A stretch of 32,000 nucleotides of DNA from Kiritimatiella glycovorans (GTDB taxonomy: Bacteria > Verrucomicrobiota > Kiritimatiellia > Kiritimatiellales > Kiritimatiellaceae). Positions within the stretch are counted from its first letter, which is position 1; every line of letters starts with the position of its first letter. The notes under the pieces were generated by a model, which was not told the origin of the DNA, did no database searches, and saw nothing but the letters and a program-made list of their open reading frames with translations. Location: the NCBI RefSeq assembly GCF_001017655.1, contig NZ_CP010904.1, forward strand, positions 2,400,001 through 2,432,000, in the 5' to 3' direction. The translations under genes were made by a program, and so were the position numbers. Positions 1,429 through 32,000 of the stretch are shown here, in pieces.

Positions 1429-1818
1429 TCACACCCTGACGATCTGGGGCAGCAGCGAAAAGTGGTCGTCGCGGGAGTAGAGGATCAGGTCGTGCTGCAC
1501 GGCCAGCGCCGCGATCCAGATATCGTGCGTCGGGATCGGTCTTCCGAGCATGCGCAGCTGCGCGAAAATGCGTCCGTAGTGATGACTGGTATCTTCATCC
1601 GGCCTCAACACGGCGACCCGTTCCGAGTTGAGAAACGTCGTCAGCCCCCGCTCGTTGCGGCGTGCGAGCGTCCCGCAGAGAAACCCGGCCCTCAGTTCGG
1701 CCAGCACAATCAGCGGCATGAATATATTTCGGGCGCGCCGCACCACCTGCAGGGCCTCCCGATCTCCGGAACAGAAATCACAGTATCGGTTCGTGTCGAT
1801 TAAAAGGTTCATCTCCAC
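1429..1818 (-). CDS. vapC: PIN-domain toxin VapC (type II TA ribonuclease)
   Basis: 129 aa with an N-terminal LLIDTN motif (PIN acidic residue), a central LAELRAG segment, and a C-terminal IPTHDIWIAALAV...LYSRDDHF pattern. Its start overlaps the stop of the upstream antitoxin gene by 10 nt. Confidence 0.85.
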   Translation of the reverse strand: MEMNLLIDTNRYCDFCSGDREALQVVRRARNIFMPLIVLAELRAGFLCGTLARRNERGLTTFLNSERVAVLRPDEDTSHHYGRIFAQLRMLGRPIPTHDIWIAALAVQHDLILYSRDDHFSLLPQIVRV

Positions 1819-2069
1819 AGGTCCTCATCGATCTGCTCGAACGCCTTCAGGGCCTCGTCAAACGCGGGATCTTCCACCCAGCTCCCCGACACCGCATCAA
1901 GATCATGGTGTTCGATCGGCTCCTCGCCCACCCCCGCCGACGCCGACAGAGCCTCCACCGCCACATAATTCAGGCTGCGCCCTTCCCGGACGGCCTGCGC
2001 CCGCAGACGCCGGTCCACCTCCGGAGGCACATCGCGAATCGTATACTGGATTTTATGCCTCTTTTTCAT
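1809..2069 (-). CDS. vapB: VapB/FitA-like ribbon-helix-helix antitoxin
   Basis: MKKRHKIQYTIRDVPPEVDRRLRAQAVREGRSLNYVAVEAL is a typical Arc/MetJ-type RHH N-terminus. The gene overlaps vapC. The start is uncertain: alternatives are ATG at 2099 or TTG at 2105. Confidence 0.7.
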   Translation of the reverse strand: MKKRHKIQYTIRDVPPEVDRRLRAQAVREGRSLNYVAVEALSASAGVGEEPIEHHDLDAVSGSWVEDPAFDEALKAFEQIDEDLWR

Positions 2070-2108
2070 GCCTGCTATGATGGCACTTTTTGCCTTCATC
2101 TGCAAGGA

Positions 2109-2129
2109 TTACTGAGTAAAAATCAGTAA
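2109..2129 (-). promoter_or_regulatory. Perfect 7-bp inverted repeat (TTACTGA-N7-TCAGTAA) upstream of vapB; candidate TA autoregulation operator
   Basis: Arms lie at 2109-2115 and 2123-2129. The repeat sits in an AT-rich tandem 10-mer (AGTAAAAATC x2) directly upstream of the vapB start candidates. Type II TA promoters commonly carry antitoxin-binding palindromes. Confidence 0.4.
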
Positions 2130-2232
2130 AAATCGAAATCGGGATTCACCACTGAGGCCACAGAGGATGCCGGGTTCGGGTTGGGAACCGCCGGCACGGA
2201 TGCGGATGAAGAATCGGGACTCACCACGAAGG

Positions 2233-2344
2233 ATACGAAGGACAACCGGGGGGGGAAGAACGAAGCCGGCCGGGTCAGGCTTCAGGACCGAAAATATCCC
2301 CCACCCCCTCGAGCACATGGCCCGGGCGGTAGGGATAGTTCTGC
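2233..2344. repeat. Copy A of a perfect 112-bp direct repeat (partner 4142..4253); carries a duplicated 3' fragment of the HAD gene
   Basis: By manual alignment, 2233-2344 is identical to 4142-4253 (offset 1909). Copy A contains the last ~22 codons plus stop of the HAD gene (2275-2344, minus strand) without the rest of the gene. Confidence 0.9.
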
Positions 2345-2455
2345 GGGGGTCCCGATTCGGAAGTCAGGAGTGCCGGTCTACTATGACGGACAGGATAAAG
2401 GGCTCGAGAAAGCGGTTCGATTACGTGTATCCGGGTAAGTGTTGCGGTGAAGAAT

Positions 2456-2522
2456 GCGGTTAAGGGTTCGTGGAAGGGCGCAGTCCACACTTCAGCGGAC
2501 CCTTCGTCGCCCACTTAACCGC
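2456..2522 (+). ncRNA. Candidate structured RNA in the IS110 left arm (possible bridge/seek-RNA stem-loop)
   Basis: A 9-bp outer stem GCGGTTAAG (2456-2464) / CTTAACCGC (2514-2522) encloses an inner stem GAAGGG (2473-2478) / CCCTTC (2500-2505). The structure lies ~140-200 nt upstream of the transposase ATG, where IS110-group guide RNAs are encoded. Confidence 0.3.
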
Positions 2523-2662
2523 CACCTTTACTCGGATACGCTTAATCGATCCGTCTTAAACGGCCTAATTTGGGATGATAACCATATAGAGGTTCTTTGA
2601 AATAGACGCTGGTCGAATGCAACGTACTCTTTGTTTAAGCAAAAACGAAAGGAGTACCGGAT

Positions 2663-3691
2663 ATGCAAACGACCAGCGCAAAGGAATTGTACGCAGGAGC
2701 CGACCTGCATGGAAACAATGTTTTTCTCTCGATTTGCGACCGGGAAGGCACGGAAGTCTTCCGGCGGCGGGTACGAACCACGCTCGATGCAGTCAATGAG
2801 GCGATGGATCCCTACTGGCCGCAGGTTCAGGCGATGGGGATTGAGTCCACGTTCAACTGGTACTGGCTGGTGGACGGCTTGCGTGAGCAGAACCGGGACG
2901 TGCGATTGGGGAATCCGGCGAAGATGAAACAGTACAAGGGGTTGAAACATGCCGATGACGCATCGGATGCTCGTTGGCTGGCCGAACTGCTCCGATTGGA
3001 TATTTTCCCGGAGAGCTACATTTATCCGAAGGAGGTTCGTTCGATTCGCGACGCGCTTCGACGCCGACAGCTGTTTGTCAGGCGGCGCACCCAGGTTATG
3101 CTCAGCCTGCAAAGCCTGCTGGAGCGTTACGGATTCAAGGCGCCGGGATCGCGTGCTCTTCAGCAGTGGACGCAGGCGGATGTCGAGGCGACGGGCCTTG
3201 ATCCGTTCGTACAGCTTCAACTCCGCACGTTGCTTGAGGCGGTCCAGTGCAGTGAGCGGCTGGCCGGACAGATCGAATCAGCGGTGCTGGGGTTTATTGA
3301 GCCCAACCCATCGTTTGAACAGGTTCAGACCGTGCCGGGCATCGGGAAGGCGCTTGGGATGACCATCGTGCTTGAAAGCGGCAACTTCGCCCGCTTCCCG
3401 AACGCGGGATGCTACGCCTCCTACTGCCGCGCCGTCAAAAGTGAGCGAAGTTCCAACAGCAGGAAGAAAGGTGAGAACAATAAGCGCAACGGCAATCCGT
3501 TTCTCGCATGGGCTTTCGTTGAAGCCGCGAGCTTCGCTCCGCGCTTTTATCCGGAGATTCAATCCTGGTATGACCGGAAGAAGAAAAAGCGCAACGCGAT
3601 TGTGGCGAAGAAGGCCTTGGCGGCAAAATTGTCCAAAGCCGTTTGGCATGTCATGAACGGGGAGGAATATGTAATGGGAATGTTGTTTTAA
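2663..3691 (+). CDS. IS110-family (DEDD) transposase/recombinase
   Basis: 342 aa. The N-terminus has a DEDD_Tnp_IS110-like segment (LYAGADLHGNNVFL...GIESTFNWYWL). The C-terminus has the Transposase_20 signature (VPGIGKALGMTIVLESGNFARFPNAGCYASYCRAV...SS...KKGENNKRNGNPFLAWAFVEAA). RBS AAAGGAG lies 7 nt upstream of the ATG. Confidence 0.9.
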   Translation: MQTTSAKELYAGADLHGNNVFLSICDREGTEVFRRRVRTTLDAVNEAMDPYWPQVQAMGIESTFNWYWLVDGLREQNRDVRLGNPAKMKQYKGLKHADDASDARWLAELLRLDIFPESYIYPKEVRSIRDALRRRQLFVRRRTQVMLSLQSLLERYGFKAPGSRALQQWTQADVEATGLDPFVQLQLRTLLEAVQCSERLAGQIESAVLGFIEPNPSFEQVQTVPGIGKALGMTIVLESGNFARFPNAGCYASYCRAVKSERSSNSRKKGENNKRNGNPFLAWAFVEAASFAPRFYPEIQSWYDRKKKKRNAIVAKKALAAKLSKAVWHVMNGEEYVMGMLF

Positions 3692-4141
3692 AACCCGATG
3701 CTGCCGGGAACCGGCTAGGGGTCTGCTTAAATCAGCGGACTGATTGGAACCGGCGGCATCGCTTCAGCTTTTGCGGTCTGTCCTGTCGTCAGCCTTCAAG
3801 GGTCTGGAAGTCTGCGTGCAGATGAACCACGGTGACTGAATAGGCAACGAGCGGGAACAAACGGTTTTCTGGCTCCAATACGAGAACGGGTGGCGGCCAT
3901 GGATCTGGAAAAGATTCGCCCTCACCTAAAAACCAGATGGGTGACTGAAACAACCGCAAACGAAAACCACGGTACGGAACGCAACGGTTGAGGCGACGGT
4001 TGAATCCGATCAAAACAAGGCATGAAGGGAAGCCGCTTGATCAGCGGCACGAAGGGGACTTTTGTGTTTGACCGGAACCTCTAATGGGTGACTCCTTTCA
4101 TTCAGTTAGAAACAGCCAAGCTTTGCTTGGCGCACCGAAGA

Positions 4142-4253
4142 ATACGAAGGACAACCGGGGGGGGAAGAACGAAGCCGGCCGGGTCAGGCTTCAGGACCGA
4201 AAATATCCCCCACCCCCTCGAGCACATGGCCCGGGCGGTAGGGATAGTTCTGC
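4142..4253. repeat. Copy B of the perfect 112-bp direct repeat (partner 2233..2344)
   Basis: Identical to 2233-2344. It overlaps the authentic 3' end of the HAD gene (4184-4253) plus 42 bp downstream of its stop. Confidence 0.9.
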
Positions 4254-4963
4254 AGGTCTTCACGGGAGCTTACGCCGCTGAGGACGAGGACCGTTTCGAT
4301 GCCGGCCTCGATGCCGGCGATGATGTCGGTGTCCATGCGGTCGCCGACGATGGCCGTCTCCTCCCGCCGGCAGCCGAGTTTTTTCAGCGCGCTGCGCATC
4401 ATCAGCGGATTGGGCTTGCCCGTGAAATAGGCTTTGCGGCCGGAGGTCATCTCGATCGGCGCAATCAGCGACCCGGTGGCGGGTACGAGGCCGCCCTCGG
4501 CCGGACCGGTGACGTCGGGATTGGTTCCGATCAGCCGTGCGCCCTTCAGCACGAGCGAAGCCGCGTGGCGCACGCGCTCGTAATTGTAGCTGCCCGTCTC
4601 GCCGACCACGACGTAATCGGGACAGACCTCATCGATCGAAAACCCCGCGTCGTAAAGGGCATTCGTGAGTCCCGGCTCGCCGATCACGTAGCACGACCCG
4701 CCCTCGCACTGCGACGCCAGGAAAGCGGCCGTCGCCATCGCGCTCGTGTAGAAGTGTTCCGCGTCGACGTCGAGTCCCAGCCGACGGAGTTTCTCGCTCA
4801 GCTCGCGCGGCGATCGCTGGCTGCTGTTGGTGAGGAAGAGGTAATGCCTGCCGCGGTCCTTCAGCGCCTGCAGAAAATCCTGCGCCCCGGAGAGCAGCAG
4901 GTCGCCGTGATAGATCACGCCGTCCATGTCGCAGATAAAGCCCTTTTTGCCGGTCAGTTTCAT
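4184..4963 (-). CDS. HAD-IIA family sugar/nucleotide phosphatase (NagD-like)
   Basis: 259 aa with motif I (FICDMDGVIY), TNSS, FTGKPNP and IVGDRMDTDIIAG, which is the classical NagD/HAD-IIA pattern. Confidence 0.85.
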   Translation of the reverse strand: MKLTGKKGFICDMDGVIYHGDLLLSGAQDFLQALKDRGRHYLFLTNSSQRSPRELSEKLRRLGLDVDAEHFYTSAMATAAFLASQCEGGSCYVIGEPGLTNALYDAGFSIDEVCPDYVVVGETGSYNYERVRHAASLVLKGARLIGTNPDVTGPAEGGLVPATGSLIAPIEMTSGRKAYFTGKPNPLMMRSALKKLGCRREETAIVGDRMDTDIIAGIEAGIETVLVLSGVSSREDLQNYPYRPGHVLEGVGDIFGPEA

Positions 4964-12985: not shown

Positions 12986-13737
12986 GGCCTCGCCCGCGGA
13001 CCGCGCTTCCCGCCCTCGCGGCCGCCCTCGCGGGCGCGCTCACCGCGGCCGCGGCCGAGTTCGGATCGGCCGGAGACGTATTGGCCTTCGCGCGGTCACG
13101 CCTGCCCCGGGAGCCGATGCGCGTGGAGGGCACCCTCAGGGCGAAAGCGCCGAATCATTTCACGCGCGCGACCTACAAAGTCGACTGGCTGCTGAACTGG
13201 GGCGAACGCGAGGCCTGCTGCGCCGTGCTGGACGAGCGCGGCCGATACCTCGGACAGCTTCGCGCGGAGTACCCCCGCGACGCCTCCCCGCGCTACACCT
13301 TCCGCCCCCGCCCCGAAGCCGATCCGGTATCGGCCCCCGACCTGCTCGAGCCGATCGGGAAGACCGACGTGAGCTGGAGCGATCTCACGCTGGCCTTCCT
13401 GTGGTGGCGCGAGGGGACCTACCAGGGCAAAGTCATGAAACGCGGGCGCGAGGCGGCCCTGGTCGAGTTCGCCGCGCCGGACCCGGACGATGAAGTACAG
13501 ACGGTGCGCGTCTGGATCGACAGCCACCTCGGACTGCTGCTGCAGGTCAACTATTACGACCGGAACGAAAAACTGCTGCGCTCGCTTCGCATCTCCACCA
13601 TCAAAAAAATCCGGGACGACCTCTGGATCGTCAAAAATCTCGACATGATCCGTCCGCTGTCCGGTGCGAGGACGAAGTTCACGGTGGAGGACGTAACCTT
13701 CCCCTCTTCTCCATCTCGCGGCGGGACGCGGCATTGA
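12982..13737 (+). CDS. Secreted LolA-like / outer-membrane lipoprotein-sorting-like protein (function uncertain)
   Basis: The start overlaps the lon stop (ATGA). It has a signal peptide (ALPALAAALAGALTAAAA). A beta-rich body with the pattern LVEF...VWID...LLLQVNYYDR...L.R.L.I...K...LW resembles the LolA_like family. The assignment is by resemblance only. Confidence 0.55.
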
Positions 13738-15403
13738 CGACGTCCTGTTTACGAAGCCACGCGCGCCGCGCGGTCATGACCCCGAACCGCATGAATGCGT
13801 AGTCGTCGGTGCTGTGCGCATCGGTGTCAATCACCAGCTTCGCCCCCGCCTCACGCGCGCGTCGCGCGTATTCGTCGGGAAGATCGAGACGCTCGGGCTG
13901 GGCGTTGATCTCCATCGCCACGCCGTGTTCCGCGCAGACCGCGGCCACGCGGTCGAAGTCGTACGCGAGCGGCTCCCGCTTCCCGATGTGCCGGGCGAGC
14001 GGGTGTCCGAGCGCGTGCACGACGCCGCTTCCGAGGGCCCGGACCAGGCGTTCCGTCATCCTGTCTGAATCGAGGTTGAAGTTGTAATGGATGCTCGCCG
14101 TCACCCAGTCGAGCCCGGCCAGAAGCTCTTCATCGAGATCGAGCGAACCGTCGGGGAGGATGTCCACTTCGACACCGGCCAGCACGAGAATATCGTCATA
14201 GCGATCGTTCGCCTCGCGGACGGCGTCGGCATGTCTCTTCAGGCCCTCCGCGTCCAGACCGCCGGCCACGCGAACGGCCTGCGAATGATCGCAGAAGGCC
14301 AGGTAGTCGTAGCCCAGCTTTCGCGCGCCCTCGATCATCTCTTCGATGGTGTGCACGCCGTCGGTCGCCGTGGAGTGCACATGCAGGTCGCCCCGGATGT
14401 CGTCCGGTTCGATCAGCGCGGGCAGCCCGCCCTCTTCCGCAGCCTCGATTTCGCCGCGATCCTCGCGCAGTTCGGGGGCGATCCACGGCAGGCCCAGTTT
14501 TCCGTAAACCGCCTCCTCGCTGCGACCCGCAAGCCGCGTGTCGCCGGAAAAAAGGCCGTATTCACTCAGTTTCCAGTCATGTTCCCGGGCGCGGCGGCGC
14601 AGACGGATATTGTGCGCCTTCGAACCCGTGAAGTACATCAGCGCCGAACCGAACGACGCCTCCTCGAAAAAGCGGAAATCCACCTGCAGCCCGCCGGAGA
14701 GCCGGACCGAAACTTTTTCCCCGCCGCGGCCGATCACCTCCGCCGGCCGCAGGCTGTCCACAATGCGGTCCGTGGTCGCGGCGCGGTCGGTGGAATGCAC
14801 CAGGATGTCGAGGTCGCCGACGCTCTCACAACCGCGCCGGAAACTCCCGGCCGCTTCCCAGCGGTCCACCGTCTCCTCCCCGTCCAGCAGACGGCCGATC
14901 ATGCCCGCCTGCTCCGAGGCCTCCTTCAGCAAAATGCGTCCCTCCGAGGCCGCCAGCATATCCAGCCCCTTCAGGATCTGCGCCTCGGTCTTCCCGCCCA
15001 TGCCCTCGAGACCGCGAACGCGGTGTTGCTCGCAGGCACGGCGCAGGTCGTCGAGATTGTCCACTCCCAGTTCCTCGTGGATCTTCTGCGCCTTCTTCGG
15101 TCCGAGGCGCGGGACGTCGAGCAGATCCGTCAGGTGTCCGGGAACCTGCCCGCGCAGTTCCTCCAGTTTCGCGCACGTGCCCGTCTCTACCATCTCACGG
15201 ATCTTGTCGGCGATGCTGGAGCCGATATGGGGAAGCTCGCTCAGATCCTCGCCCTGCTCCACCAGATCCTCGACCCTGCCGGACAGGTCTTTGATCGTAC
15301 GGGCCGCGTTGCGGTAGGACCGCACGCGGAACGGATTTCCGCCCTGAATCTCGACCAGGTCCGCAATCTCTTCAAACATCCCGGCCGCGTCGGCATTTTC
15401 CAT
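13679..15403 (-). CDS. polX: DNA polymerase X family protein with C-terminal PHP phosphoesterase domain (PolX)
   Basis: 574 aa with N-terminal HhH/Pol-beta-like segments (FEEIADLVEIQGGNPFRVRSYRNAAR; GSFRRG..VGDLDILV) and a C-terminal PHP domain (DLHVHST.TDG; CDHS). Confidence 0.9.
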   Translation of the reverse strand: MENADAAGMFEEIADLVEIQGGNPFRVRSYRNAARTIKDLSGRVEDLVEQGEDLSELPHIGSSIADKIREMVETGTCAKLEELRGQVPGHLTDLLDVPRLGPKKAQKIHEELGVDNLDDLRRACEQHRVRGLEGMGGKTEAQILKGLDMLAASEGRILLKEASEQAGMIGRLLDGEETVDRWEAAGSFRRGCESVGDLDILVHSTDRAATTDRIVDSLRPAEVIGRGGEKVSVRLSGGLQVDFRFFEEASFGSALMYFTGSKAHNIRLRRRAREHDWKLSEYGLFSGDTRLAGRSEEAVYGKLGLPWIAPELREDRGEIEAAEEGGLPALIEPDDIRGDLHVHSTATDGVHTIEEMIEGARKLGYDYLAFCDHSQAVRVAGGLDAEGLKRHADAVREANDRYDDILVLAGVEVDILPDGSLDLDEELLAGLDWVTASIHYNFNLDSDRMTERLVRALGSGVVHALGHPLARHIGKREPLAYDFDRVAAVCAEHGVAMEINAQPERLDLPDEYARRAREAGAKLVIDTDAHSTDDYAFMRFGVMTARRAWLRKQDVVNAASRREMEKRGRLRPPP

Positions 15404-25834: not shown

Positions 25835-25869
25835 AAAGGCCCGGTGTCCGGACGGGACGCCGGGCCTTT
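25835..25869 (+). terminator. Intrinsic-terminator-like hairpin after eno
   Basis: A 10-bp stem AAAGGCCCGG (25835-25844) / CCGGGCCTTT (25860-25869) is followed by GCTTTG. It starts 25 nt after the eno stop. Confidence 0.55.
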
Positions 25870-25956
25870 GCTTTGCGCGGCGAAGCCGGCCCGGTCATCG
25901 ACGGTGGGGTGAATCCCGATTCCCTGAGTTCAACCTTGGGACCCCCGGGGGAATAT

Positions 25957-26059
25957 CGTACTCGTACGCGTACTCGGAGCGCCGAAGGCGCGATCCCACT
26001 CCCCCGGTTCAAGGAATTCGAGTACGAGTACCGCTTCGCTGAGTACGAGTACGCGTACG
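25957..26059. repeat. Period-6 GTAC-containing low-complexity blocks forming an imperfect inverted repeat
   Basis: CGTACTCGTACGCGTACTCGG (25957-25977) matches the reverse complement of TGAGTACGAGTACGCGTACG (26040-26059) at 17/20 positions. A further CGAGTACGAGTACC block lies at 26019-26032. A direct near-copy, GCGTACTCGTACGCGTAATCGG, lies at 26219-26240. Confidence 0.8.
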
Positions 26060-26465
26060 TTGTGACGCGGGCGGATTTCTAATCCAGCCGCTACGATTTC
26101 AGTAGTTCCACAAATATCCACGAAGAACCCGGAGATCGCGCCCTACCCAAGAGACGCAGGTCGAACCCATGCGTGAAGGCAGGGACTCTGCTGGACAGCA
26201 GAAGACCGTCCGCCGTGTGCGTACTCGTACGCGTAATCGGTCCCTGCCTTTTCCTCTCCTGAGAAGAAACCTCATCGGAGCAAGGCCCGCCATCCCTGAA
26301 AATCTTTCCGATTATTTCCGATCGACCTTTGACATTACGCAGATATCTGGTTCTTTAGCGCCTCCACAGCGCGGATCTCCCCGTACGGGAGACCGCCGAG
26401 ACGCCATGCGGACGCCCGCCGGAAAAGGGCGCACCCGCTGCACAACACCTCAAAGGAGGCTGCGT

Positions 26466-29746: not shown

Positions 29747-29874
29747 TGCTTCTGCGGGCCTGACCCCCGCTACATCTTCATTGTGAAGGACTTACCTTCT
29801 GCGGGTCTGACCCCCGCTACATGCTTCTGCGGGTCTGACCCCCGCTACATCTTCATTGTGAAGGACTTACATCC
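29747..29874. repeat. Cluster of three REP-like units (CTTCTGCGGGYCTGACCCCCGCTACAT), two followed by CTTCATTGTGAAGGACTTA
   Basis: Direct copies begin near 29750, 29797 and 29825. Each contains the hairpin GCGGG-N7-CCCGC, and the extension contains the hairpin CTTCA-TTG-TGAAG. The cluster overlaps the 3' end of the RAYT-like gene. Confidence 0.85.
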
Positions 29875-30656
29875 CACCTCAATCGGTTTCCTGCGCTTAG
29901 GGCCTCAATTCCATCGTCGGAAAAGATGTCGTAAGCTCCTCGCGCCTCACGAAGCGTCGCACATTCCTCGGCCTCTTCTATACGACAGGCGTCCACATCG
30001 ATCCCGAACTCCCGTTTTACCCGCGCAATGTACGCAGGGCTTCCGAGCGCCAGTTTTTCGCTCCAATAATACTCACGGCTCAGCAACGAACCTCGTTCGC
30101 GGATTGCCGCATCCACACGCTCCCTTCGCCAGGCGCTCAGTTCCTCTTGATTAGATAACCCCGCCAGTTGCACCAGCAGGCTTCGGTCAATTCGCCCGTA
30201 TCTCTTCGGTCTGCGCTCAAGCTCATGGTACCCGCCAAAGGACCATTCCGAGGGATGCCTGACCACTCCGGCCCGAACCATATTCAGGTCGATATAGGTC
30301 ATACAGCGCCTCAAGTGGGTGCCATTTTCCACGGCCGTCGCGTGATAGCGGTCTTCCCAGAATGCTCCCTGGCGATGCTTACGCGCGTTATATTCCTGCG
30401 CCACACGGCCCGCCATAAGCTGCATCGCGCGGGGAATGGCCATCCGGTTGCCGGAACCGTGTACCAGAAGATGGATGTGATTTGACGTCACCACGTAATT
30501 GAGCACCTGAAGCCCATATCGTTTTTTCGCCTCAAACAACCAGTGCATCCAACGCCGTCGGTCTCTCGCGAAACGAAACAGAAATTCGCGCTTGTGACAC
30601 CGGTGCGTCAGGTGCCAGGTGTGACCGGGAAGGTAGAAGCGGTGGGGGCGGACCAT
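29853..30656 (-). CDS. REP-associated tyrosine transposase-like protein (IS200/IS605 Y1 HUH family, RAYT-like)
   Basis: 267 aa with YHLTHRC-type N-terminus (HTWHLTHRCHKREFLF), the HUH motif (SNHIHLLV), and the catalytic Tyr region (GAFWEDRYHATAV). It is flanked by REP-like hairpins in opposite orientation. Confidence 0.85.
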   Translation of the reverse strand: MVRPHRFYLPGHTWHLTHRCHKREFLFRFARDRRRWMHWLFEAKKRYGLQVLNYVVTSNHIHLLVHGSGNRMAIPRAMQLMAGRVAQEYNARKHRQGAFWEDRYHATAVENGTHLRRCMTYIDLNMVRAGVVRHPSEWSFGGYHELERRPKRYGRIDRSLLVQLAGLSNQEELSAWRRERVDAAIRERGSLLSREYYWSEKLALGSPAYIARVKREFGIDVDACRIEEAEECATLREARGAYDIFSDDGIEALSAGNRLRWDVSPSQ

Positions 30657-30792
30657 GGCGTAACCTTGCCACCTGCCCCCCTTGTCGTCAACGCGCCCGC
30701 GCTTAGAACTTCGTTTTTAGGGCCGTAATTGATCCCCTAAGACCAAACAAGCGATTTCAACACACGATTACTCATTCTATTTGAACCGCTTA

Positions 30793-30808
30793 CGGGGGTC
30801 AGACCCCG
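30793..30808. repeat. Inverted copy of the REP core (CGGGGGTCAGACCCCG) on the other side of the RAYT gene
   Basis: CGGGGGTCAGACCC is the reverse complement of GGGTCTGACCCCCG, found in the 29747-29874 cluster. Confidence 0.7.
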
Positions 30809-30824
30809 TTTCACTACAGCGGCA

Positions 30825-32000
30825 CGGATCATCCCCACGCGTGTGGGGAGAACGGTCGCGGCTAGCGCCATGAGGCTGAGGATATAGGATCATCCCCACG
30901 CGTGTGGGGAGAACTTTTCTTTGGTTGGTTATCCGATTGCATGAAGAGGATCATCCCCACGCGTGTGGGGAGAACGCTAGCGGAAATCGACAAGACACGC
31001 GCAGTGACGGATCATCCCCACGCGTGTGGGGAGAACGAAACTAAAAGCGGTGTCATTCCAAGTAAAGTCGGATCATCCCCACGCGTGTGGGGAGAACTCC
31101 CACAGGGTTTTGTCGGCGTTGTCGCTGTACGGATCATCCCCACGCGTGTGGGGAGAACATATTTTCGGAAGTTACAAGGAAAACAAATATCGGATCATCC
31201 CCACGCGTGTGGGGAGAACTCCTCAATTGGATTGTTAAGTCGAACTTGGTTCGGATCATCCCCACGCGTGTGGGGAGAACCCACGCCAAGGCGCAACGCT
31301 ATTACCGACAAACGGATCATCCCCACGCGTGTGGGGAGAACCCACCATGATTTAATGAATAAACCCGATTGTTCGGATCATCCCCACGCGTGTGGGGAGA
31401 ACTCCACAATTGTTACGACGAAACGCGGTATATGCGGATCATCCCCACGCGTGTGGGGAGAACTCTTTCAGGTCGGTCGCTTCTTGCGGTTCCAACGGAT
31501 CATCCCCACGCGTGTGGGGAGAACGGGGGGTTGTTTTCTTGGGGAAATAAAAGCCGACCATCATCCCCACGCGTGTGGGGAGAACGGAGCAGCATGAGGC
31601 CAACGTCAATGCTCACTCGGATCATCCCCACGCGTGTGGGGAGAACGAACAGCGACTTGCGACGACGCCATGTTTTGTCGGATCATCCCCACGCGTGTGG
31701 GGAGAACCCTAATTTGCCGTTGGGTTGCCAAGGTCTTGGCGGATCATCCCCACGCGTGTGGGGAGAACTGCCCTCTATGTTCCGCACCTTCATTTTGCGC
31801 CGGATCATCCCCACGCGTGTGGGGAGAACGCATCGAATTGCAACCCTGTCGAACTCGATCTCGGATCATCCCCACGCGTGTGGGGAGAACCAGATCAGAT
31901 CCGCGGAAGTGCTGGTAAAGAACGGATCATCCCCACGCGTGTGGGGAGAACGTTTGCAAGTGCTCCAGATAGGGTGAGTTTGCCGGATCATCCCCACGCG
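30825..32000 (-). CRISPR. Type I-E-like CRISPR array, 19 complete repeats plus a partial 20th, 19 spacers, continuing beyond the window
   Basis: The 29-nt repeat CGGATCATCCCCACGCGTGTGGGGAGAAC occurs at exact 61-nt period from 30825 to 31984, with unique 32-nt spacers. Its reverse complement GTTCTCCCCACACGCGTGGGGATGATCCG has the I-E architecture: a CCCCAC/GTGGGG stem and an 8-nt handle AUGAUCCG. Transcription is therefore inferred on the minus strand, with the leader beyond 32000. Confidence 0.97.

Follow-up and report, generated by a model that had tools for sequence, protein, structure and literature searches.

A 112-bp gene-end duplication on either side of an IS1111-type insertion sequence in Kiritimatiella glycovorans: true ends of the element and a possible templated insertion into an intergenic palindrome

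Introduction

Insertion sequences (ISs) of the IS1111 type, within the IS110 family, carry a long non-coding region after the transposase gene (tnp) and subterminal inverted repeats with extensions of about 7 bp on the left and 3 bp on the right, and they make no target duplication (PMC11187229). Members such as ISEc11, ISPa11 and ISKpn4 encode a DEDD transposase together with a seekRNA, short segments of which match the target's top and bottom strands (Siddiquee et al. 2024, PMC11187229), and the bridge RNA of IS621 and other IS110 elements has two loops with two guide segments per loop and a shared core (Durrant et al. 2024, PMC11208160; Hiraizumi et al. 2024, PMC11208158). Here, we analysed a stretch of 32,000 nucleotides of the Kiritimatiella glycovorans genome (NZ_CP010904.1, positions 2,400,001 to 2,432,000; hereafter the window, to which all coordinates refer), in which an element of this kind lies between two identical 112-bp sequences holding the 3' end of a neighbouring HAD-IIA hydrolase gene. 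A preliminary description of the same DNA had placed the element exactly between these repeats.

Two other described systems resemble this locus. The attL/attR sites consist of a direct repeat that includes the 3' end of a gene, the gene itself being left intact. In quasipalindrome template switching, an imperfect inverted repeat is the site of the event and a nearby template is copied, inverted repeats being hotspots at which replication stalls and templates are switched (PMC7202029).

Results and discussion

The duplicated gene end

Positions 2233–2344 and 4142–4253 are identical at 112 of 112 positions, as had been stated in the preliminary description, and when one mismatch is allowed the match grows to 2227–2344 versus 4136–4253 (117/118, 99.2%). 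This pair is the sole long repeat of the 32-kb window besides a clustered regularly interspaced short palindromic repeat (CRISPR) array. From the HAD-IIA gene, the right copy contains the stop codon plus 22 codons and a further 1 nt (4184–4253), followed by 42 bp of downstream DNA (4142–4183), in agreement with the earlier account of about 22 last codons, a stop and 42 bp being repeated while the intact gene is kept. The HAD-IIA gene is intact and the 3' end held by the right copy is native, because the encoded C-terminus aligns with those of eight homologues, including the invariant residues Y242 and P244.

Three minor observations concern the repeat itself. A minus-strand open reading frame (ORF) of 79 amino acids (2275–2514) fuses 57 codons of the palindromic region described below in frame to the duplicated last 22 HAD codons; its exact sequence is absent from the protein collection searched, and it is probably no gene. 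A stretch at 25866–25922 resembles parts of the repeat and was set aside as a chance likeness, since it is short, GC-rich and not collinear. The template and variable repeats of a diversity-generating retroelement were rejected as well, the two copies differing at 0 of 112 positions and no reverse transcriptase being found among the window ORFs scanned.

Ends and class of the insertion sequence

About 16 copies of related ISs were obtained via a transposase search, loci L173–L175 being added later. When 2101–4400 was compared with these loci by BLAST, homology was found solely from about 2572–2576 to about 4092–4103. The element, TGATAAC...GGGTGAC, thus spans 1517 bp (Table 1) and is separated from the repeats by non-IS DNA on both sides, 231 bp (2345–2575) on the left and 49 bp (4093–4141) on the right. 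Its DNA identity to the relatives is 96.7% for L161–L163, 79% for L164, 75% for L165 and L166 and 66–72% for L081–L087 and L001. Two relatives are IS-only contigs of 1516 and 1518 bp (96.7% identity), and one contig of 983 kb carries two IS copies whose sequences agree at 100% over 1516 bp and have nothing in common beyond. Alignment with related copies, a check already suggested in the preliminary description, therefore defined the true ends, and these stop well short of the 112-bp sequence rather than extending into it. The position exactly between the repeats has to be abandoned, as has the size, given as about 1797 bp including a right arm of 450 bp, which came from taking the repeats as ends; the real figures are 1517 bp and 401 bp after the stop codon. 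The remark that the element is long for its family rested on the same mis-set ends, 1517 bp being a normal size.

Table 1. Coordinates of the features of the locus (window positions; a slash marks a junction).
Feature	Position	Strand	Basis or remark
IS1111-type IS (IS110 family), 1517 bp, TGATAAC...GGGTGAC	2576–4092	+	homology to L161–L166, L081–L087, L001 and L173–L175 confined here
Transposase/RNA-guided recombinase gene, 342 aa, intact	2663–3691	+	Pfam DEDD_Tnp_IS110 and Transposase_20; NCBIfam NF033542
Left subterminal inverted repeat CATATAGAGGTTC	2583–2595	+	preceded by 7-bp extension TGATAAC (2576–2582)
Right subterminal inverted repeat GAACCTCTAATGG	4075–4087	+	followed by GTG (3-bp extension) and AC
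Predicted guide-RNA module 1, target-binding loop analogue	3696–3761	+	consensus fold with compensatory pairs
Predicted guide-RNA module 2, donor-binding loop analogue	3782–3855	+	AAGGGTC 3798–3804, CGGTGACTGAATA 3830–3842; architecture of module 1
Internal copy of abutted ends, ATGGGTGAC/TGAAAC	3937–3951	+	exact 9-mer of right end 4084–4092
Best predicted-target match in 32 kb, CAGCGGACCCTTCG, 12/14	2493–2506	+	inside P2, 75 bp from IS; unused
Left copy of 112-bp repeat, most likely derived	2233–2344	-	gene-end fragment without rest of gene; in P1 loop
Right copy of 112-bp repeat, probable source	4142–4253	-	native HAD-IIA 3' end and 42 bp downstream; continuous with ORF 4184–4963
P1 left arm and most of loop (CCGGCAC...GAATCGGGACTC and ACCACGAAGG)	2191–2232		folds with 2345–2376
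P1 right arm (GGGGGTCCCGATTC...GTGCCGG)	2345–2376		pairs with 2191–2232
P2, 166-bp imperfect inverted repeat	2400–2566		non-IS DNA left of IS (in 2345–2575)
Non-IS 49 bp between IS and right copy	4093–4141	-	holds terminator-like hairpin
HAD-IIA (NagD-like) hydrolase gene, intact	4184–4963	-	domain/family profile matches, homologue alignment
vapBC-type toxin-antitoxin pair	1429–2105	-	RHH antitoxin 1809–2105, PIN toxin 1429–1818

The intact transposase gene between the copies confirms that the element is of the IS110 type. Its product has an N-terminal DEDD (RuvC-like) domain (PF01548, E = 7.7e-14) and a C-terminal Transposase_20 domain (PF02371, E = 7.3e-12), and scores 168 bits against the NCBIfam model NF033542 'IS110 family RNA-guided transposase' (cutoff 140). 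It is a new sequence for which no close named relative was found, and its similarity to solved IS110-family proteins is remote (best Protein Data Bank match ISCro4, E = 0.0045); like the HAD protein, it matches a K. glycovorans protein at 100% identity. Within the IS, 87 bp precede the tnp ATG and a 401-bp non-coding region follows its stop codon, a layout shared by nine relatives. At the left end, TAGAGGTTC (2587–2595) is the exact reverse complement of 4075–4083, and the left subterminal inverted repeat is kept in all relatives. Their left ends read TGATAA[CTG]CAT... and their right ends ...GGAACCTCTAATGGGTGAC, except in L164 and L166, which diverge near the end, and in L087 (GGGTGAA); at most AC is common to both junctions. 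The DEDD transposase, the long non-coding region downstream of tnp and the 7-bp and 3-bp extensions are those of ISEc11, ISPa11 and ISKpn4 (PMC11187229), as are, by prediction, the short RNA segments matching both target strands and the lack of a target duplication. Judged from these features, the element is best described as a new IS1111-type member with a predicted guide resembling a seekRNA or bridge RNA, ordinary for its group.

Given the position of the IS between the repeats, it could be proposed that the element made the duplication, either through a circular intermediate that carried flanking DNA and recombined homologously or by a long target duplication upon insertion, the more so as IS110-family elements form circles, some of them of several types (PMC12288879). 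The mapping of the ends already largely refutes this reading, to which we attach very little probability. Gaps of 231 and 49 bp separate the IS ends from the repeats, the repeat borders hold no sequence like a donor joint, a target matched by the guides or an end of the IS, and the family makes no target duplication (PMC11187229). No flank repeat was found in L165, L166, L082, L083, L084, L086 or L173, whose flanks are usable at either end, a comparison that leaves out L164 (33 nt) and L087 (179/85 nt), where flanks are too short, and to which L174 and L175 contributed nothing. The repeat is thus not a property of the element, because relatives with flanks long enough show no such repeat. The same observations, namely precise and conserved IS ends inside the repeats, no flank repeats and no IS-end-like borders, speak against the Campbell-type integration of an IS circle with a 112-bp flank that had been offered in the preliminary description. 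Its other suggestion, that the 112 bp are host DNA and no target-site duplication, stands, since the repeats do not abut the IS and have no counterpart at the relatives. The main outcome is therefore a correction: an IS110/IS1111 element with a 112-bp target duplication would contradict known biology, and the contradiction dissolves once the ends are mapped.

We also considered that cells hold a single 112-bp copy and that the second is an artefact of assembly, given that one assembly only represents the locus. This is highly unlikely: the K. glycovorans sequence (CP010904) was obtained from a PacBio RSII library of >10 kb at 265x, assembled with HGAP and checked against MiSeq reads in IGV (PMC5148204), the repeats are 1.9 kb apart with unique DNA between them, so that any long read spans both, and polymorphism of the IS is unable to create a duplication 231 and 49 bp outside its ends.

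Relatives of the IS often adjoin other mobile DNA, as at 1596–2969 of L164, 301–687 of L161 and 4884–5420 of L166, the neighbours being a second gene of the IS110 family, the maturase ORF of a group II intron and a DDE_3 transposase. An apparent duplication of the left end in L173 (2153–2441), a 48-nt repeat of flank plus left end, was discarded as a scaffold artefact, as it spans a run of N.

The left copy splits a palindrome

The sequences on either side of the left copy, 42 bp (2191–2232) and 32 bp (2345–2376), are inverted repeats of each other. When 2233–2344 is removed they form a 74-nt imperfect hairpin, P1 (-19.4 kcal/mol with DNA parameters, z = -4.4, 0/200 shuffles as good). Its inner stem (GAATCGGGACTC / GGGTCCCGATTC) counts 12 bp, its outer stem 8 bp and its loop 12 nt, and in its reconstructed intact form P1 reads ...GAATCGGGACTCACCACGAAGGGGGGGTCCCGATTC... 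The insertion point falls within the loop, 2 nt from the 3' stem, and the arms continue to pair around the 112-bp insert in the sequence as it is now. The inner stem includes the exact 10-nt inverted repeat GAATCGGGAC/GTCCCGATTC; one of at least 10 nt in such a geometry occurs at 0.22% of 4515 control positions of the window. No comparable inverted repeat spans the flanks of the right copy, where the longest is 5 nt. The flanks of the left copy thus form a palindrome once the copy is removed and those of the right copy do not, so that most likely the derived copy is the left one, inserted into the loop of a P1 that already existed in intergenic DNA. The right copy runs into the intact gene with its native end and has a well-placed terminator-like hairpin beyond it, which counts in favour of its being the source. 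A local tandem duplication followed by insertion of the IS at the junction, the second explanation of the preliminary description, does not account for the palindrome outside the left copy, which points to insertion into existing intergenic DNA.

We hold with moderate confidence that the 112-bp gene-end copy is a templated insertion at a hairpin, independent of the IS. The left junction provides a microhomology: CGAAG stands just left of both copies (2227–2231 and 4136–4140), and if a 2-nt bulge is allowed eight bases match (CACC..GAAG). We infer two independent events overlaid in the spacer between the HAD gene and vapB, which before them would have been 449 bp long and, on the HAD strand, would have had the order HAD, 42 bp, terminator-like hairpin, a second palindrome (P2), P1 and vapB. 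In one of them, the IS (2576–4092) would have entered between the terminator-like hairpin and P2 by means of its own RNA-guided recombinase, at a site that is a weak match to its own guides. In the other, the 112-bp copy of the HAD 3' end would have been written into the loop of P1, at a distance from the source of 280 bp, or of 1.8 kb with the IS already in place. In the most likely mechanism, replication would have stalled or the DNA broken at the hairpin of P1; a 3' end left free, ...CACCACGAAGG, could have annealed at CGAAG beside the source (4136–4140), 112 nt would have been copied, and the end would have rejoined the other side of the loop, which amounts to a templated insertion or double template switch. 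Compared with classical quasipalindrome events (PMC7202029), in which a few bases are copied from the opposite arm, the copied tract would be 112 nt, taken in direct orientation from 0.3–1.9 kb away.

Several points weigh against this explanation. The return junction (2344/2345) shows no clear microhomology, since 2345 GGGGGTC and 4254 AGGTCTT share an out-of-register GGTC alone. The ancestral order is reconstructed, not observed: exact look-ups of the transposase and of the HAD protein, made in search of an empty site, gave no further contig, and the HAD homologues that come closest reach no more than 76% protein identity and share no synteny. If the IS was already present, the jump of 1.8 kb would be long. 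The palindrome across the left copy could be due to chance, at about 0.2% for the inner stem alone. Finally, to our knowledge, bacterial templated insertions of such length are not a well-documented class.

The palindrome also bears on a different explanation, in which incoming DNA integrated in a Campbell-type manner through the shared 112 bp, by RecA or a site-specific recombinase. The incoming circle or element would have carried a HAD 3' end of its own, the repeats would resemble attL/attR, and the IS and the 280 bp of non-IS DNA (2345–2575 plus 4093–4141) would be what remains of that element. Integrative elements commonly duplicate gene 3' ends, and here the gene-attached copy has its own terminator-like hairpin next to it and the perfect repeat suits a recent event. 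The genome is moreover reported to hold 75 transposase genes and 12 islands (PMC5148204). However, apart from the IS transposase, the window ORFs scanned (every long one, with 2.2 kb visible leftward) include no integrase or recombinase, the hits being housekeeping genes and one Y1 transposase, and in contrast to attL/attR no coherent element lies between the repeats, the 280 bp being without coding capacity or homologue. This explanation would also make 2191–2232 host DNA and 2345–2376 element DNA, unrelated to each other, yet both form one 74-nt palindrome, and a single palindrome on both sides of the left copy argues against a boundary between host and element. We consider it rather unlikely.

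The left arm of P1 contains a 14-nt motif, AATCGGGAYTCACC, with three exact intergenic copies in the window, at 2137–2150 and 2212–2225 on the plus strand and at 25908–25921 on the minus strand; within two mismatches there are four matches versus 0.6 expected by chance. The copy at 2212 is the P1 left arm itself. These recurrences (2137, 2212 and 25908), with an inverted part-copy at 2349–2358, could suggest a palindromic element resembling a miniature inverted-repeat transposable element (2211–2358), with the motif in terminal inverted repeats of 10–12 bp and the gene end as cargo. We give little credence to this idea: the interior would be nearly all 112-bp copy, the remaining motif copies are solitary, and the pairing extends outward as a second stem (2191–2197 with 2370–2376), like an intergenic palindrome and unlike the termini of an element.

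The templated insertion that we favour would be an ordinary rearrangement scar, and it looks like a one-off error of replication or repair. It would offer a clear, naturally occurring case in which a templated copy of 112 bp lies in the loop of an intergenic palindrome, and automated annotation could take scars of this kind for att sites or for target duplications.

Predicted guide RNA and choice of target

The non-coding region downstream of tnp was compared among ten relatives. It contains two similar modules, each with a closing stem around two single-stranded segments, and the predicted consensus fold shows compensatory changes in 14 of 62 pairs. The IS thus probably encodes a two-module guide RNA. 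In module 1 the 5' guide TAGGGGTC (3716–3723) is antisense to the core and right flank and the 3' guide CAGCGGAC (3733–3740) is sense to the left flank and core. The predicted guides covary with the flanks of the relatives: in L084 the guide TTGGGG changes with the flank CCCCA, and in L087 GTAGGGG pairs with CCCCTAC while the left guide matches exactly (CAGCGAGC with CAGCGAGC); further matches are CGGGC in L166 and eight contiguous positions in L085. In module 2 the second segment matches the joint of right and left ends, GGGTGAC/TGATAA, and both module 2 and the internal copy at 3937–3951 match the abutted ends GGGTGAC/TGA, changing with the right end in L087 (both GGGTGAA). This organization recalls the bridge RNA of IS621 and IS110 elements in its two loops, its two guide segments per loop and its shared core, here AC (PMC11208160, PMC11208158), and differs in the position of the predicted RNA, encoded on the 3' rather than the 5' side of the recombinase gene. 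Together with the clean boundaries of the new element, this predicted guide RNA and the covariation of guide and target among about 16 relatives are what the locus adds to the description of the group.

Unlike ISEc11, ISPa11 and ISKpn4, the window copy sits in a poor match to its predicted guides and has a left junction without C. The target predicted from the guides is CAGCGGAC/CCCTAG and the actual flanks are ...AATTTGGGA/ and /TCCTTTCATT, a score of 5–7 out of 14. The left junction (2575/2576) reads GGGA/TGATAAC, whereas C precedes TGATAA in 14/14 left junctions of relatives, most of them GGAC/TGATAA; the usual right junction is GGGTGAC/CCCTTT. The cause would be either the loss of a terminal base or a mismatched core, and the copy may be immobilised. 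Insertion at off-target 'half-match' sites, which match part of the guide, was described for IS621 (bioRxiv 10.64898/2026.08.31.748434); that work was done in vitro, whereas the link made here comes from sequence alone. Both flanks nonetheless resemble the extended family target (TAATTT..GGGA / TCCTTT versus ATTAATTTATAGGAC / CCCTTTT), therefore 2345–2575 and 4093–4141 were contiguous before the IS inserted.

In several relatives an AT-rich stretch of about 20 nt (ATTAATTTATAGGAC) is common to the left flanks, and the family target seems to be conserved over more than the guide-matched stretch. A hairpin adjacent to the target, as reported for ISPpu10, was rejected as a family trait, the flanks of the relatives folding no better than shuffles.

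The 12/14 match to the predicted target that lies unused inside P2 is compatible with activity of the recombinase there, as would suit a variant in which the IS caused the duplication indirectly: single-strand transposition intermediates (copy-out or top-strand) or off-target nicking near the palindromes would have stalled a fork, and repair would have written the copy into the hairpin loop. The probability of this variant is slight. If true, it would make bridge-type IS elements a source of long, non-adjacent flanking duplications.

DNA between the insertion sequence and the repeats

P2 matches its own reverse complement over 2413–2553 at 71%, and its folding z-scores are -5.0 and -5.6 on the two strands. 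Equally good folding of the two strands and symmetric internal loops mark it as a palindrome at the level of DNA, and for the same reasons its interpretation as a 6S RNA, a small RNA or a riboswitch was rejected. Neither P2 nor the 280-bp segment as a whole gave a match in Rfam, among plasmids or in IMG/VR; the longest ORF of the segment had no protein-database match and no exact ORF was found in the collection, nor was anything similar present among 172 fetched loci. To the right of the IS, the terminator-like hairpin of the HAD gene, GCCAAGC-AAA-GCTTGGC followed by TGTTTCT (4131–4115, minus strand), stands 53 nt past the stop codon; a terminator scan overall was no richer than shuffles, and the position of this hairpin alone carries meaning.

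Other features of the window

A gene 10 kb off (13679–15403, minus strand) encodes a PolX-type DNA polymerase, in which pol beta thumb, HHH and PHP domains were recognised. This class serves gap-filling and end-joining repair, activities of the kind that a templated insertion at P1 would need.

The CRISPR array occupies 30825–32000 and runs past the end of the window, with at least 20 units of a 29-nt repeat, CGGATCATCCCCACGCGTGTGGGGAGAAC, at a period of 61 bp; over the 28 kb on its left, the scanned ORFs include no cas gene. Right beside it lies a Y1 (IS200-like) transposase ORF of 267 amino acids (29853–30656, minus strand), flanked by three hairpins resembling repetitive extragenic palindromic (REP) sequences, CTTCTGCGGGTCTGACCCCCGCTACAT (29749–29850), and by an inverted copy at 30795, an arrangement (29749–30810) like that of REP-associated tyrosine transposases (RAYTs). 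The junction of the left copy (2339–2351) reads TTCTGCGGGGGTC and holds 9-mers matching the 5' part of these REPs on either strand, and the native HAD sequence at the equivalent point (4248–4263) is itself identical to the REP at 12 of 16 positions. An origin of the palindromes from paired REPs and a RAYT was rejected, since P1 and P2 are no REP copies, and the 9-mers at 2344/2345 are possibly a coincidence. Several copies of a short repeat of the GTACTCGTACGCGTA type occur in the spacer between an enolase and a methyltransferase gene (25940–26240).

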